Shown: piece after piece, positions 54,232-60,137 of the stretch | Layout of the letters: every line of letters begins with the position of its first letter | Position numbering within the stretch: position 1 is the stretch's first letter | Assembly (NCBI GenBank): GCA_903896045.1 | Contig: CAITWD010000022.1 | Span: forward strand, 4,398-68,397 | Source of the DNA: an uncultured Actinomycetes bacterium | GTDB taxonomy: Bacteria; Actinomycetota; Thermoleophilia; Miltoncostaeales; Miltoncostaeaceae | Direction of reading: 5' to 3' | Length of the DNA stretch: 64,000 nucleotides | The notes under the pieces: model-generated | Told to the model about the DNA's origin: nothing | Seen by the model: only the letters and a program-made list of their open reading frames with translations | Databases searched by the model: none | Made by a program: the position numbers and the translations under genes

Positions 54232-55677
54232 ATGCAGCAGTTCTTTTCACAGAACCAAACTATCGTCGTCTTCGCGCATGGTTTGGTGTTTTTCTCGCTG
54301 GGTCTTGCCGTGTGGCTGCAGCGCCGTCGGGCAAGTCGCCTTGTCTTGACCAATGCGCTGATCTGGCTCGCCGCCTTTGCAACTGCGGAAGCGTTCGCCA
54401 CGTGGGGCAACGTCTTTATCCCCATTCAGCAGAGCTATATGGATGCCACGCTGATTAGCGGGCTCCAAATTTTACAGGGACTCCTCGAGGCCGCGACCTA
54501 TGTGCTGATGGTGCAGTTCGGATTGCGCCTTCTCGAACTCGATCGAGGGCTCCGGCGGTGGCTCACCGCTGCGTCGATTGGGATATGGGGTCTTATTATT
54601 GGCGCCGGGATCGTGGTGGGGCACGCACAGCACTGGACCGCGATTGAGTGGGAACACTCAGTCGACAACGTTGCGGCACTTTGCCTGCTGGTGACAGGAT
54701 GTGTCCTTGCGGCGATTGGCATGTGGCGTCAACGCGGCGCGCTGTCCGCTGCCGGAATGAGGGGTATTCGTCCCTATGCCGCCGCGACCGCCGCGGTGCT
54801 CGTCTTTTATGCGCTCATCTCGGCAGTGATTGTCATCGGTGCCCCATGGGCGCCTGGCGTAATCACCCAAGCGCATTGGCTCTCGCTGACAGGCATTCCT
54901 GTGGATGTCGTGCAGGGGCTTGCGGGTCTTGTGTTGTGCGTGCTCGCCGCCAAGCTCTTGGAAATTTTTGAGTTCGAGGCAAAACAACGCGTTGACGCTC
55001 TGGAGCGGTCGCGCGCGATTGCCGAGGAACGTGCGCGTTTTGGCCGGGACCTGCATGACGGAACGATTCAGTCGATCTATGCCGCAGCGCTGCGTCTTGA
55101 GGCAATTGCACTGCGCAGTGATGATGACCCGATGTGCGCAGAAGTGCGGGGCGTCGTTGGCGATCTCAACCACGTCACCGACGATATCCGTTCCTACATC
55201 ACCGACCTTGCCCAAACTCCCGACACCGCATCGGGGATTGCAGATCGGTTGCGTGAACTCGGTGCCGAGTTCGACGCGGAATCGCAGTTGCGCGTACGGG
55301 TCCATGTTGCGGGTATCGCTGCCTCTGGCCCAATCCCCCAGGGTGCGGGGAAGCACCTTAAGCAAATCGTGCGTGAGGCACTCTCGAATGCAGCCCGTCA
55401 TGCCGGTCGCTGCAGCGTCGATGTACGACTCGCGTTTGCCACCGATGAGATCGAGCTGGTGGTGAGTGACAACGGGCGCGGTATTGTCCACGACGACGAT
55501 CCCTCTGCCGGCCTTGGATTGCGCAATATGCATGAGCGTGCGCGCCGTATGGGAGGGCGTCTCGAGGTCACATCACTCTCCCCTGGGACCCGCATTACGG
55601 TCTCGATCCCCCTCGATAGCGACCTTCCGGATTCGACACCAATCCCTCAATACTCCTCTGCAAAGGTGATGCCCTAG
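54232..55677 (+). CDS. Sensor histidine kinase (multi-TM sensor, HisKA_3 + HATPase_c)
   Basis: About 7 TM helices, then RFGRDLHDGTIQSIYAA (HisKA_3) and DNGRGI...GLGLRNMHERA. Confidence 0.9.
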   Translation: MQQFFSQNQTIVVFAHGLVFFSLGLAVWLQRRRASRLVLTNALIWLAAFATAEAFATWGNVFIPIQQSYMDATLISGLQILQGLLEAATYVLMVQFGLRLLELDRGLRRWLTAASIGIWGLIIGAGIVVGHAQHWTAIEWEHSVDNVAALCLLVTGCVLAAIGMWRQRGALSAAGMRGIRPYAAATAAVLVFYALISAVIVIGAPWAPGVITQAHWLSLTGIPVDVVQGLAGLVLCVLAAKLLEIFEFEAKQRVDALERSRAIAEERARFGRDLHDGTIQSIYAAALRLEAIALRSDDDPMCAEVRGVVGDLNHVTDDIRSYITDLAQTPDTASGIADRLRELGAEFDAESQLRVRVHVAGIAASGPIPQGAGKHLKQIVREALSNAARHAGRCSVDVRLAFATDEIELVVSDNGRGIVHDDDPSAGLGLRNMHERARRMGGRLEVTSLSPGTRITVSIPLDSDLPDSTPIPQYSSAKVMP

Positions 55678-56349
55678 ATGACGACCACGCCGACTGACGC
55701 AATCCGCATTCTGATCGTCGACGACCACGCGGTGGTCCGAATCGGTTTGAAGACCGTCCTCACAAATGCGACGGGCTTTCGCGTGGTTGGTGAGGCGGGC
55801 ACGGTCGCCGAGTCGATCACCTTGGCATCGCAGATTCGCCCTGACGTGGTACTGATGGACGTGCGTCTTCCCGATGGCTCAGGCGTCGAGGCCTGTCGTC
55901 GCATCAAAGCCGATCAGCCTGATGTGCGCGTCGTGATGCTGACCTCGTATCAAGACGAGGAGGCGATTGTGGGGGCCGTGATGGCAGGCGCATCGGGATA
56001 TCTGCTCAAGCAGGCGGATGCGGAGCGCCTGATTCAGGCAATTCGCGACGCCGCCGCAGGTGAGTCATCGCTCGATCCGCGCGCCGCAGGCACCCTTCTT
56101 ACGCAATTTCGCGAATTGTCGGCCAAGCAGGCAGAAGCCGAGCTCGCCGGCCTGACCGATCGTGAGCGTCGCATGCTTGCGTTGATCGCGGAGGGGTATA
56201 CCAATCGTGCGATCGGCGAGGTGCTGCACCTTTCGGAGAAAACCGTCCGAAACCATGTCAGCCAGCTCTTGCGCAAGCTGGGCTTCCAACGCCGCTCGCA
56301 GGCGGCCGCGTGGGCTGGTCAGCGCCGCTTGGAGCTTCCGCCTGCCTAG
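55678..56349 (+). CDS. NarL/LuxR-family response regulator
   Basis: REC domain (ILIVDDH...VVLMDVRLPDGSG) plus LuxR HTH (LTDRERRMLALIAEGYTNRAIGEVLHLSEKTVRNHV). Confidence 0.95.
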   Translation: MTTTPTDAIRILIVDDHAVVRIGLKTVLTNATGFRVVGEAGTVAESITLASQIRPDVVLMDVRLPDGSGVEACRRIKADQPDVRVVMLTSYQDEEAIVGAVMAGASGYLLKQADAERLIQAIRDAAAGESSLDPRAAGTLLTQFRELSAKQAEAELAGLTDRERRMLALIAEGYTNRAIGEVLHLSEKTVRNHVSQLLRKLGFQRRSQAAAWAGQRRLELPPA

Positions 56350-56503: not shown

Positions 56504-57295
56504 ATGTCACGCACTGCACGAGTTTTGGCACTTGCCAATCAAAAAGGTGGCGTTGCGAAGACGACCACGACGATCAACATGGGCGTTGCCCTGAAGGGCA
56601 TGGGATATCGCGTGCTCGCGATCGATCTCGACCCGCAAAGCAACCTTTCGATGAGTCAAGGCATCGACGTCGAGAATCTGACGTTGACGATGTATGACGT
56701 GCTGGTCCGCGAAACCCCGCTGGCCAATCTCATCCACGCGCGTGAGATTGACATTGCCCCTGCGGGGATCGAGCTTGCCGGGGCGGAACTTGCCCTGACT
56801 GCCACGATGGGGCGCGAGCGCGCCCTGCAGCGTGCACTCCGTCCGATGTTGGATCTCTATGACGTGATCTTGATCGACACTCCGCCGTCGTTGGGTTTGT
56901 TGACCATCAACGCGATGGTCGCCTCGCATGGGGTGATCGTGCCGGTGCAGTGCGAGTACCTTTCGCTGCGCGGACTTGCGCAATTGCAGTCCACGCTTGA
57001 GCAGGTGCGCGAGCACTTGAATCCCGACATCGCGATCGCAGGAATACTTCCGACGATGTACGACGGGCGGACATTGCATGCGCGTGAGGCCGTCGATGTC
57101 TTGACCCAGAGTTTCGGTGACATTGTCTATCCAGTGCGGATCGGGAAAACGATTCGGTTTGCTGAGGCTCCTGTGAGTGGACAAAGCGTCCTGTCGTATG
57201 ACCCAGATGGGCAGGCCGCGCGGTGGTACCGCCAGCTTGCGCGTCTTGTGGCTGAGCGCGAATTACGCCCGGTGCCCGAGGAGGTAGGTGCATGA
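56504..57295 (+). CDS. parA: ParA/Soj-family ATPase (orphan; no parB adjacent)
   Basis: Deviant Walker A NQKGGVAKTT, LAIDLDPQSN, ILIDTPPSLG. Confidence 0.9.
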   Translation: MSRTARVLALANQKGGVAKTTTTINMGVALKGMGYRVLAIDLDPQSNLSMSQGIDVENLTLTMYDVLVRETPLANLIHAREIDIAPAGIELAGAELALTATMGRERALQRALRPMLDLYDVILIDTPPSLGLLTINAMVASHGVIVPVQCEYLSLRGLAQLQSTLEQVREHLNPDIAIAGILPTMYDGRTLHAREAVDVLTQSFGDIVYPVRIGKTIRFAEAPVSGQSVLSYDPDGQAARWYRQLARLVAERELRPVPEEVGA

Positions 57296-58551
57296 CAACT
57301 GGCCGTCCAGGACGCACAAGCATGCGGGAAGGACCGCTGTCGGATTTGTTCCGCAGTACCGATCCACCGCGTTCAAATGCGGGGACCGAACAGCTCTTTA
57401 CCCCGACAGATGCCGCTCCGACGCCAGATGTCAACAGCTATGTCGCACTGATCCGTGTTGTCGGCGTCGGTGGTGCTGGCTGTAATGCGATCAACCGCAT
57501 GGTGGAAGCTGGTCTGCGGGGTGTGGAGTTCATCGCGATCAATACCGATCGTCAGGCGCTCGACGCCTGTCGGGCAGATGTGCATATTCCCGTCGGCCTC
57601 GAGCTGACCAAGGGGCGGGGCACAGGCGGCGACCCCTTTAAGGGCGAGCAGTCCATCCGTGATGCGGAGGATCAGATTCGCCGCGCCTTGCGGGGCAGCG
57701 ACCTTGTCTTTATTGCCTCCGGCCAGGGCGGGGGGATGGGCAGCGGTGGCGCACCGATGGTGGCGCGAATCGCCCGCGAAGTCGGTGCCCTCGCAGTTGC
57801 CGTCGTCACGAAGCCATTTCAGTTCGAGGGGAAGCGACGGGTGCAGGTCGCCGATGAAGGAATTGCGCGCCTGCATGACACCGCCGATACGGTCATCGTG
57901 ATTCCGAACGACCGATTGATGACGGTGCTCGAGCGCGGGACATCGATGGTGAGCGCTTTTCAAGTCACCGATGATTTGTTGCGCCAAGGGGTGCAGGGCA
58001 TCTGCGACATGATCACCCTGCCTGGATTGATCAATCTCGACTTTGCCGATGTGCGCACCGTGATCCGCGATGCGGGCGAGGCGCTGTTGGGTATTGGGTA
58101 TGCGGGCGGCGGTAATCGCGCCGCCGAAGCAGCACAGGCAGCGATTTCCTCCGCGTTCTTGGAGACTCCAATCGATGGTGCCCGTGGGGTGCTCCTCGGG
58201 ATCACCGGTGGCCCAGACCTCTCATTGCTCGAGGTATCAGAGGCGGCAGAAATCGTTGCTGCGGCTGCCGACCCAGATGCCAACATTATCTTTGGTGCAG
58301 CAATTGATCCCGAGCTGTCGGGCCAGGTGTGGGTGACAGTCGTTGCCGCAAGCTTTAGTGGGGTGCGGGCTGCGCCATCATCAAACCCTGAAGCGGAAGA
58401 ACGCGCGGGCCGTTTGATTCCGCGTGCGATTGGTCGCTCAGTTGCATCGGTGAGTGGGGCTGTGCCGCGCAGTGCGCTCGAGAGTGCTGCGCATGAGCAG
58501 ACCAGCCTTGATGTGTCAGACCACGTGCACGCAATCGACACCGAGGAGTAG
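57292..58551 (+). CDS. ftsZ: FtsZ-family tubulin-like GTPase (atypical context and termini)
   Basis: IRVVGVGGAGCNAINRM, GQGGGMGSGGAP, T7 loop NLDFADV. GAGGAGG SD and ATGA overlap with parA. Confidence 0.9.
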   Translation: MTTGRPGRTSMREGPLSDLFRSTDPPRSNAGTEQLFTPTDAAPTPDVNSYVALIRVVGVGGAGCNAINRMVEAGLRGVEFIAINTDRQALDACRADVHIPVGLELTKGRGTGGDPFKGEQSIRDAEDQIRRALRGSDLVFIASGQGGGMGSGGAPMVARIAREVGALAVAVVTKPFQFEGKRRVQVADEGIARLHDTADTVIVIPNDRLMTVLERGTSMVSAFQVTDDLLRQGVQGICDMITLPGLINLDFADVRTVIRDAGEALLGIGYAGGGNRAAEAAQAAISSAFLETPIDGARGVLLGITGGPDLSLLEVSEAAEIVAAAADPDANIIFGAAIDPELSGQVWVTVVAASFSGVRAAPSSNPEAEERAGRLIPRAIGRSVASVSGAVPRSALESAAHEQTSLDVSDHVHAIDTEE

Positions 58552-58565
58552 TCGCGTCCCGTCGG

Positions 58566-60137
58566 GTGCGCTCGGTTGTCGCTGCAGGACATCGTGCGTC
58601 GGCAGCAGCCGGCGCACGCATTCTTTCGTTGGGTGGGAATGCGGTCGATGCCGCGGTGGCGACCGCCTGCGCTGCGGCGGTATGTGAAGGGCCGCTGACG
58701 GGCCCGGGCGCCGGGGGGTTCTGCCTGGTTGCACCGCCGAGTGCGCCACCGCAGCTTCTTGATTTCTTCGTCAACACTGCCGGGGGTGGCCCCGATGGGC
58801 GGGTGTGTGACCCGGACGAATTCGACAAATTTGTTGTCCCCTTCGGCGATGCGGAGCAGGTCTTTCATATTGGGCCCGCATCGGTTGCCGTGCCCGGGAT
58901 GCTGCAGGGGTTATGTGCTGTGTGGGAGCGGTTTGGCCGGCTTCCGCTTCCCGAATTAGTTGCCCCTGCCGTCGAGCTCGCGCGGGATGGAGTAGTGATT
59001 GGCCCGGAGTCGGCGTATCTGTTCGCGATTCTTGAGGGCATGCTGCGCTTTAGCCCCGATGCGGCACGTATCTATGCCCCCGATGGGCAACTACTCGGGA
59101 CCGGGGATCGATTTACGAATCCCGATTTGGCGACAACTCTTGAAGAGTTCGGGCGCACCGGGTCGGGCGCGATGGCGCCTGGTGGATGGCTCGCGACACG
59201 CATTGTGGAGGGATTGCAGGCAGTGGGTGGCTATGTCACCCATGATGATCTCGCCGGCTACGCCGTCATCGATCGCATCCCACTCGAGGTCGGGTTCCGC
59301 GGCCGGCGCGTCATCACAAATCCGCCTCCATCATCGGGCGGAATCTTGATCGCCGCCGCGCTCCATCAACTTGACAAACGGGCACCGGCGACCACTCTTG
59401 TCGCGCAGTATCAGCAGCTCATCGCCGCGGGGGAGTACGCCAACAGTCTCCGCACCGACGCATTCGCCCGAGCGCTCCATCAACCTGAGCTCCATGGACA
59501 AGGATGGGCATCGCTGTTTGCGCCAGGAGAGAGGGCGAACCCCTCTCGCGGACCAAATGGGACGACCCATATCAGTGTCATGGACGCTGAAGGGATGGTG
59601 GTCAGCATGACTAGCAGCAATGGGTCGGGCTCTGGGGTCATGCTTCCTGGGACAGGATTTCTGCTCAACAACATGGCGGGGGAGCAAGATCTCAATCCCG
59701 GTGGGTTTGGGACATTGCCCGCCGGTGTACGCATGACCTCGATGATGGCGCCAACCGTGGTGTTCGAGGACGGGCAGCCGGTGCTGGGGATCGGCTCGGC
59801 GGGGTCGAACCGATTGCGATCGGCAATTTTGCAGACGCTGGTTGGTATCGTCGATGAGCAATTGTCGGTCGAGGACGCGGTGGTGCGCGCCCGGGTGCAT
59901 CCTGAGTCGGGCGGCATTGATCTGGAAGGCGGTGTTCCTGATGAGGTTGCTGCCGCACTGCAGGACGGGCAGCATGTGATTCGGCAGTGGGGCGATCGGA
60001 ATCTGTTTTTCGGTGGCGTCAGTGCAGTTGGATGTTGGGGGGATGAACTCCAAGCAGCAGGTGATCCGCGCCGAGGTGGTGGGGCATTTGGGGTCTTGGA
60101 CACAATGGAGGTTGTGGAGCTATCGACACACGCATAG
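58566..60137 (+). CDS. ggt: Gamma-glutamyltranspeptidase family protein
   Basis: GGNAVDAAVA N-terminal region and autoprocessing site NGTTHISVMD...SNGSGSGV. Confidence 0.9.
   Translation: MRSVVAAGHRASAAAGARILSLGGNAVDAAVATACAAAVCEGPLTGPGAGGFCLVAPPSAPPQLLDFFVNTAGGGPDGRVCDPDEFDKFVVPFGDAEQVFHIGPASVAVPGMLQGLCAVWERFGRLPLPELVAPAVELARDGVVIGPESAYLFAILEGMLRFSPDAARIYAPDGQLLGTGDRFTNPDLATTLEEFGRTGSGAMAPGGWLATRIVEGLQAVGGYVTHDDLAGYAVIDRIPLEVGFRGRRVITNPPPSSGGILIAAALHQLDKRAPATTLVAQYQQLIAAGEYANSLRTDAFARALHQPELHGQGWASLFAPGERANPSRGPNGTTHISVMDAEGMVVSMTSSNGSGSGVMLPGTGFLLNNMAGEQDLNPGGFGTLPAGVRMTSMMAPTVVFEDGQPVLGIGSAGSNRLRSAILQTLVGIVDEQLSVEDAVVRARVHPESGGIDLEGGVPDEVAAALQDGQHVIRQWGDRNLFFGGVSAVGCWGDELQAAGDPRRGGGAFGVLDTMEVVELSTHA

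Follow-up and report, generated by a model that had tools for sequence, protein, structure and literature searches.

An FtsZ paralog encoded behind an orphan ParA-like ATPase throughout Thermoleophilia, with a conserved N-terminal peptide as a candidate ParA-docking tail

Why should a gene for an FtsZ-like GTPase lie immediately after a gene for a ParA-like ATPase, in the place that ParB occupies in par operons? We investigated this question for such a gene, here called ftsZ2, on a 64,000-nucleotide stretch of contig CAITWD010000022.1 (assembly GCA_903896045.1, positions 4,398 to 68,397) from an uncultured member of the Miltoncostaeaceae (Actinomycetota; Thermoleophilia); the window is this whole stretch, and coordinates given without a locus or contig name are positions in it. 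FtsZ paralogs and ParA-type regulators of FtsZ are already known; what is new here is an FtsZ paralog with a candidate orphan-ParA docking peptide, in the partner position, throughout a class. Judging from sequence comparisons, it is fairly probable that FtsZ2 is the downstream partner of an orphan ATPase of the ParA/MinD family, that this second FtsZ arose at or before the base of the Thermoleophilia, and that the N-terminal peptide tethers the filaments. FtsZ2 would probably link FtsZ filaments to a ParA positioning system.

The two genes and the parts of ftsZ2 are listed below (dN/dS, ratio of nonsynonymous to synonymous substitution rates, taken within the genus of the window at a synonymous divergence, dS, of about 0.9; SH-aLRT, Shimodaira-Hasegawa-like approximate likelihood ratio test; pLDDT, predicted local distance difference test score).

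56504..57295, forward strand: orphan ParA-like ATPase of 263 amino acids with the deviant Walker A motif KGGVAKT (Pfam AAA_31, 190 bits; CbiA, 86 bits)
57278..57284, forward strand: Shine-Dalgarno-like GAGGAGG, 7 nt upstream of the ftsZ2 ATG (read from the sequence)
57292..58551, forward strand: ftsZ2, ParA-coupled FtsZ paralog of 419 amino acids (Pfam; TIGR00065; FtsZ2 clade with SH-aLRT 99)
57316..57363, forward strand: conserved N-terminal peptide TSMREGPLSDLFRSTD, residues 9-24, proposed ParA-docking or ParA-activating tail (conservation; dN/dS 0.06)
57364..57438, forward strand: variable, probably disordered linker, residues 25-49 (length variation; dN/dS 0.20; AlphaFold2 pLDDT below 50)
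57439..58359, forward strand: FtsZ GTPase domain and FtsZ C-terminal domain, residues 50-356 (match to PDB 1RLU; dN/dS 0.058)
57613..57633, forward strand: altered T3 loop GRGTGGD, canonically GLGAG(A/S)(D/N) (alignment with 82 canonical FtsZs)
57727..57747, forward strand: altered G-box (T4 loop) GGGMGSG, codons GGC GGG GGG ATG GGC AGC GGT, with Met149 at 57736-57738
58033..58053, forward strand: intact T7 loop NLDFADV, the synergy loop for polymerization-dependent GTP hydrolysis, residues 248-254 (unvarying in the alignment)
58414..58455, forward strand: genus-conserved block LIPRAIGRSVASVS in the tail, perhaps what is left, in degenerate form, of the C-terminal peptide (dN/dS 0.16)
58456..58548, forward strand: variable acidic C-terminal tail without D-(I/V)-P-x-F-L (dN/dS 0.65)

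The product of ftsZ2 matched the Pfam families Tubulin (PF00091, 145 bits, residues 54-213) and FtsZ_C (PF12327, 102 bits, residues 262-355), the NCBIfam equivalog model TIGR00065 for ftsZ (379.4 bits; cut-off 295.2), and Mycobacterium tuberculosis FtsZ (PDB 1RLU; 354 bits, residues 48-373). The FtsZ core, that of a polymerizing GTPase, is complete and under strong constraint. The same genome (1.67 Mb, 99.85% complete) encodes a canonical FtsZ1 on contig C36, with the signature GGGTGTG, the C-terminus ...DDELEIPDFLK and 56% identity to FtsZ2; murB lies two genes upstream of ftsZ1. The ftsZ2 gene is not in the cluster of division and cell-wall genes (dcw), its neighbors being a two-component system, the ParA-like gene, and a gamma-glutamyltranspeptidase (GGT) gene. 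Because a separate canonical FtsZ1 is present in the genome, the window gene is an extra copy; it is a true paralog and not a product of lineage drift, the alternative that the earlier reading of the sequence alone had named as its own refutation. Compared with canonical FtsZ (1RLU and the genome's own FtsZ1), FtsZ2 belongs to the same two-domain fold family, with T1 and T7 unaltered and almost every invariant residue in place, but it lies outside the dcw cluster, at whose end ftsZ is usually located, and behind a ParA gene and carries a conserved N-terminal peptide and linker; in family f1 (Miltoncostaeaceae) it also lacks the C-terminal D-(I/V)-P-x-F-L, and in the genus of the window it has GGGMGSG and GRGTG.

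The second FtsZ is a property of the class. Of 40 relatives drawn from seven families of this class (those with names being Thermoleophilia, Miltoncostaeaceae, and Miltoncostaeales metagenome-assembled genomes), 38 gave two FtsZ matches; the two that did not are genomes of 71% and 73% completeness. Among 250 sampled Actinomycetota genomes, at least two matches were present in all 18 other members of the class and one in nearly all the rest. Three other actinobacterial families (f35, f56, and f63) have two tandem FtsZ genes about 270-550 bp apart (loci L128-L137; genomes G083, G124, G164, G229, and G275), which is a duplication separate from FtsZ2. When 120 FtsZ cores were placed in a tree, the FtsZ2 sequences grouped without exception in a single clade (SH-aLRT 99), with FtsZ1 copies lying among ordinary bacterial FtsZs; in the best tree a branch of support 84 had every Thermoleophilia FtsZ to one side of it, and an FtsZ duplication at the base of the class is an allowed reading. 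Trees here and below came from quick searches with SH-aLRT support only, and genes in related loci were crude open reading frame (ORF) calls made for this analysis.

The N-terminus of FtsZ2 is both conserved and constrained. Every family from f1 to f8 carries (K/R)xSM(R/K)(E/D)G(P)L(S/A)xLF(R/Q)xT at the extreme N-terminus, for example KRASMREGPLAELFRAT (f3), SMKDGLSELFRRT (f2), SMKEGALSNLFQPT (f6), and MKDSGLSFLFRAG (f4), with KRASMREGPLA(E/D)LFRxT in f3, f5, f7, and f8; the position of Arg12 is basic (Arg or Lys) in all families, and the linker after it varies with the family, from about 25 residues to over 150. A word-indexed homolog search with residues 1-52 returned genus-level FtsZ2 proteins only. 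Because the peptide is conserved in frame in eight families and has a dN/dS of 0.06, the N-terminus must be translated and is constrained like the catalytic core, and a downstream start near 57440, which would have undone the long N-terminus of the sequence-only reading, is therefore excluded. The Shine-Dalgarno-like motif on which that reading relied is in place, and the ftsZ2 ATG and the parA stop share ATGA. The first core strand begins at about residue 50-52; the extension is real, at about 50 residues and not the 55 or so first given. Public gene calls of some orthologs in the genus (P0012, P0013) begin at Met11 of SMREG and leave out the basic residues before the motif; 57292 and 57322 (Met11) are both start candidates, and the motif is retained with either.

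A short conserved N-terminal peptide, a flexible linker, and a gene directly after an ATPase gene are together the layout of a ParA partner, and FtsZ2 has all three. The partners of ParA/MinD ATPases (ParB, ParG, MinE, PomX, McdB) typically act through N-terminal basic tails and are typically encoded directly downstream. A close homolog of the ParA-like neighbor lies directly upstream of FtsZ2 in every Thermoleophilia locus examined (about 45 loci, f1-f8; tblastn) and adjoins FtsZ in none of 72 FtsZ loci fetched from other lineages; where the spacing was read (f1, f2, f4, and f6), the two genes overlap by ATGA or are <20 nt apart. The neighbor is 42% identical to the ParB-linked ParA of the same genome (contig C2, operon rsmG-parA-parB), and MipZ is not its best family (PF09140, 39 bits, against 190 bits for AAA_31). 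In a tree of 64 actinobacterial ParA homologs, ParB-linked Soj proteins formed one clade (support 99) and the orphan and FtsZ2-linked ParAs a superclade (support 99), within which the FtsZ2-linked proteins (n = 17) were a clade of their own (support 98). By this tree the ParA-like neighbor falls among the orphan ParAs of Actinomycetota, in a superclade to which the PldP/Rv1708 type also belongs, i.e., Corynebacterium glutamicum PldP (Cg1610), Rv1708, and MSMEG_3743. PldP gathers in foci where division sites are emerging, and cells that have lost it produce minicells (PMC3989709); an E. coli minD mutant is complemented by Rv1708 and by MSMEG_3743, which are also reported to bind ParB and ScpA (PMC10482377). 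PldP and Rv1708 are both implicated in division-site placement.

The loci of these orphan ParAs offer a second context for the peptide. One group, clade A, is found in a PldP/Rv1708-type setting, where xerD or ald is upstream and scpA follows no more than 1.5 kb downstream. In family f2, scpA is immediately 3′ of ftsZ2 in all four loci (L102:5230-6003; equivalents in L104, L106, and L108), and the order parA-ftsZ2-scpA is collinear with the parA-partner-scpA order of PldP-type loci in other Actinomycetota. When a profile of the FtsZ2 peptide was run over 17 orphan-ParA loci, six of the 10 top matches were the N-terminus of the ORF right after a clade-A ParA. Nine clade-A partner ORFs start with (K/R)RASLPGA(D/E)ELFRxT; allowing for more variation, the N-terminus of the gene between parA and scpA reads ...RAS(L/M)..P.A(D/E).LFRxT. 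The partners are about 115-175 amino acids long, with the N-terminal peptide followed by a variable linker and, at the C-terminus, a conserved domain about 65 residues long (HEEKxTFYCT..L.ALE.ARL.LR....DRGRIVREAL); they look like the missing partners of PldP/Rv1708-type ParAs. The difference is that the partner in PldP-type loci is this small protein, and in the Thermoleophilia it is a full FtsZ.

These clade-A partner ORFs are in loci L142, L143, L146, L148, L150, L151, L153, L157, and L167, at about 2200-2700 in each. Profile searches of Pfam and PDB with the 65-residue domain gave no match, and a ribbon-helix-helix fold is a guess.

Since a similar peptide heads the genes after PldP-type ParAs, the FtsZ2 peptide is most likely a portable ParA-docking tail. 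Its position and architecture, which are those of ParA partners, and its recurrence on the otherwise unrelated partners of the nearest ParA relatives make docking to the ATPase the most likely function, and we regard docking to the neighboring ATPase as likely. The two peptides were also compared directly by Smith-Waterman alignment, with the N-terminal 45 residues of 1325 crudely called genes of the window genome as the null: FtsZ2 N-termini scored 34-42 against the clade-A peptide in seven of 10 lineages, the null maximum being 32.

The three oddities of the window protein differ in age: the N-terminal peptide is class-wide, the loss of the C-terminal peptide family-wide, and the Thr-to-Met change in the G-box confined to the genus. 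The tails that were read in f2, f3, f5, f6, f7, and f8 keep a canonical-like C-terminal peptide (FEIPSFV, LDVPGFL, ELPSFL, LDVPEF), and the peptide is lost throughout f1. The window protein ends in ...HVHAIDTEE and is without D-(I/V)-P-x-F-(L/M), the peptide to which FtsA, SepF, or ZipA binds, as the sequence-only reading had it; possible remnants in the family are EVPEFV, seen in one genus, and the block S(V/I)PRAIGRSVASVS, conserved in the genus of the window, where LIPRAIGRSVASVS is invariant or nearly so and the tail after it varies freely. The codons at 57727-57747 bear out the altered G-box, and the T7 loop is intact as claimed. Met occupies the G-box position only in the genus of the window (g1, nine of nine) and in G017 from one other genus; because sister lineages have ACC (Thr), two independent origins of the change are implied. 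The Thr is 100% conserved in 82 canonical FtsZs, and L109R and A111T, both in T3, alter sites that these sequences conserve at 100% and 94%; T151S, M258I, N303G, and G354N/S are further changes at near-invariant sites alongside Met. In E. coli and B. subtilis, T108A (the first Thr of the signature) and T111A, respectively, reduce GTPase activity (PMC3618327), and by analogy the T3 and T4 changes probably slow GTP turnover of FtsZ2.

Several results weigh against the partnership as we read it. A profile of 17 actinobacterial ParB N-terminal motifs (G-L-G-R/K-G-L-x-A-L-L/I), searched against the six-frame translation of the window genome, gave 1286 matches, among which the genome's own ParB ranked third and the FtsZ2 peptide was absent; this search rules out the peptide as a sequence homolog of the ParB motif. 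The likeness of REGPLSDLFR to ParB-type peptides, offered earlier as speculation, falls to that extent; the proposed tie to ParA itself is supported by the class-wide adjacency and by the same type of peptide after related orphan ParAs. The FtsZ2-linked ParA clade is sister to orphan clade B (support 95) and not to clade A, which bears the similar peptide; clade-B ParAs (L141, L169, L171, L173, L175, L177, and L182) have directly after them, in every case, the gene of a small protein containing two CxxC pairs (..ECSxCxRE....CPxCGRRTW..), which we read as a double zinc ribbon, and its N-terminal motif (DPLGK(A/R)ALFS or G(K/R)YALYSA) differs from the FtsZ2 peptide. The window's own peptide scored 31 against the clade-A peptide, which is borderline, and the f4 variant scored 21, indistinguishable from background. 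A profile of the clade-A peptide, run over the window's own genome in six frames and over five whole Thermoleophilia genomes, did not single out FtsZ2, nor did Smith-Waterman alignment of the peptide with the six-frame translation of its own genome; six-frame searches are uninformative here because out-of-frame translation rich in Arg, Ala, Ser, and Pro swamps an 18-residue motif with an indel, and the best whole-genome match to the profile (in G189) was an out-of-frame artifact. The similarity of the peptides is significant solely in the search restricted to N-termini, where the sequences are mutually related. The AlphaFold2 model of FtsZ2 is poor (pLDDT 58, from a 17-sequence alignment), with residues 1-50 (pLDDT below 50) and 355-419 disordered, and it informs solely on the disorder of the two tails. 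The effect of Met149 on GTPase activity is extrapolated from Ala substitutions in other species.

We propose the following mechanism. The N-terminal peptide would serve this ParA lineage as a portable docking tail, an ATPase-activating tail, or both; ParA in its ATP-bound form would then tether FtsZ2 filaments or set their position, probably on the nucleoid, and the filaments would bias the site at which the canonical FtsZ1/SepF ring forms. In the genus of the window, the change from GLGAG to GRGTG in T3 and from Thr to Met in T4 would slow turnover and make FtsZ2 a more static ParA-positioned landmark or modulator; FtsZ2 of this genus may be a landmark rather than a membrane-anchored constriction filament. 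The most economical model, which we put forward tentatively, as something close to an even chance, is that division is positioned through FtsZ2, tethered by ParA and interacting with FtsZ1.

The evidence was weighed against four other explanations. The peptide might bind a third factor common to both contexts (ScpA/SMC, SepF, or FtsZ1), with ParA co-expressed and not in direct contact. The adjacency of scpA to ftsZ2 in f2 and its nearness to clade-A ParAs, the reported binding of ScpA and ParB by Rv1708 (PMC10482377), and the lack of a match between the FtsZ2 peptide and the ParB profile all fit this view, but ParA is the sole gene invariably linked to the peptide-bearing gene, scpA is unlinked to ftsZ2 in the window genome (C36:91536-92204, about 7 kb from ftsZ1), and known partners of ParA/MinD ATPases typically work through basic tails at their N-termini and are the products of genes directly downstream; we consider a third factor unlikely. 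Somewhat less probable still is the main functional rival, in which ParA and FtsZ2 serve chromosome segregation or condensation, ParA driving or placing a cytomotive FtsZ filament. The genome has a complete canonical parA-parB operon at another place, FtsZ2 keeps a divisome-type C-terminal peptide in most families, its core shares about 55-60% identity with canonical FtsZ and shows only mild class-wide changes, and the phenotypes of PldP are division and not segregation defects (PMC3989709), all of which speak against segregation, for which one can cite the parA-ftsZ2-scpA order in f2, the largely DNA-segregating character of the ParA family, and the lack in f1 FtsZ2 of a peptide tying it to the membrane divisome.

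If the peptide were instead an amphipathic membrane-targeting helix, FtsZ2 would anchor itself, which would count most in lineages without the C-terminal peptide, and the adjacency to ParA would be incidental co-regulation. The L-x-x-L-F spacing and flanking Arg could form a short amphipathic helix, the AlphaFold2 model has a tiny helix at residues 17-19, and the SepF-type peptide is lost in f1; set against this, the motif has three hydrophobic residues only and conserved acidic ones, it is the exact sequence (M-R/K-E/D-G-(P)-L-S/A-x-L-F-R-x-T) and not a physicochemical pattern that is kept, the same type of peptide heads small cytoplasmic proteins adjoining PldP-type ParAs, and conservation is equal where FtsZ2 retains its C-terminal anchor peptide. 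We consider a membrane helix improbable. Strongly disfavored, and the least probable, is a redundant or decaying duplicate. The substitutions at otherwise invariant sites of the nucleotide loops, the lost anchor peptide, and the long stem branch of the family (0.88) could be taken for decay, but the gene is kept in every Thermoleophilia genome sampled, no stops or frameshifts were found in the FtsZ2 copies of the relatives compared, the T7 loop is preserved, as are all the other invariant sites, and Thr-to-Met occurred twice independently; purifying selection within the Met-bearing genus, as strong on the peptide as on the core (dN/dS about 0.06), indicates that ftsZ2 is functional and rules decay out.

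Two further features flank the pair:

54232..56349, forward strand: HisKA_3 histidine kinase and NarL/LuxR response regulator, upstream and co-directional (Pfam; synteny at family level only)
58566..60137, forward strand: GGT, downstream (Pfam G_glu_transpept, 323 bits; synteny in f1, f3, and f5 by tblastn)

The regulator, the kinase, or both lie upstream of parA in 19 of 28 f1 loci (tblastn), the remaining f1 loci having mostly about 1.5 kb of flank or a contig end; neither was found within the 4 kb of flank searched at f2-f6 loci. GGT is probably unrelated to ftsZ2 in function. In the rest of the window genome we found no MinC, MinE, or MinD-type protein, one ParB and no second ParB-type (Noc-like) protein, and one SepF; that no rival positioning system turned up in a genome 99.85% complete speaks for the proposed role in placing division. 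The only match to PF14450 ("FtsA") is MreB, so no FtsA was found; MreB and MreC are encoded at G000:C39:3851-4978 (L127:1417-2544, minus) and L127:480-1391. An ORF of 281 amino acids between murB and ftsZ1 (L002:2851-3696, minus), in the usual position of FtsQ, has no Pfam match at E ≤ 0.01.

Among known systems, ParA-ParB and type Ib ParF-ParG share with this locus the order of ATPase and partner, an N-terminal peptide with an invariant basic residue, a flexible linker, and a deviant Walker A, but the FtsZ2 peptide does not match the ParB motif (LGRGLxALL), the partner is a cytoskeletal GTPase and not a centromere-binding protein, and the window genome has a separate true ParAB pair. MipZ of Caulobacter, PomXYZ of Myxococcus, and MinCDE follow the logic proposed here, a ParA/MinD-family ATPase setting the site of FtsZ assembly, and in PomXYZ a partner protein activates the ATPase with an N-terminal peptide. 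In those systems the ATPase acts on a single canonical FtsZ, directly or via adaptors, whereas the proposed adaptor here is an FtsZ paralog that bears the docking peptide itself. Retained extra FtsZs with altered termini are known from Hyphomicrobiales (e.g., Agrobacterium FtsZ1 and FtsZ3; bioRxiv 10.1101/2025.09.29.679267), and Anabaena FtsZ has a lineage-conserved N-terminal peptide required for normal function (PMC6175996). Most of the alphaproteobacterial paralogs are cut short behind the GTPase domain, unlike the full-length FtsZ2 of the window, and neither the Hyphomicrobiales paralogs nor archaeal FtsZ1/FtsZ2 nor Anabaena FtsZ are described as coupled to a ParA gene. A literature search on FtsZ paralogs in Thermoleophilia and other Actinomycetota and on ParA-linked FtsZ returned nothing relevant, and recent surveys of FtsZ evolution and duplication make no mention of the Thermoleophilia FtsZ2.

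How Actinomycetota place the septum without Min or nucleoid-occlusion proteins is an open question, as is the target of PldP and Rv1708, and this locus is a direct and class-wide genomic link of that orphan-ParA lineage to FtsZ. The short peptide is a testable candidate interface, and the natural variants of FtsZ2, without an anchor peptide or with Met for Thr in the tubulin signature, would be useful material for work on the tuning of GTP turnover and of anchoring. A broader proposal, which we advance with some reserve and rate a little short of even, is that the orphan ParAs (PldP/Rv1708 and relatives) are not orphans: their downstream partners would carry a portable docking peptide, and in Thermoleophilia this peptide would have been grafted onto an FtsZ duplicate, so that the filament itself may be the cargo of ParA and a self-positioning seed for the Z-ring in a lineage that lacks Min and Noc.

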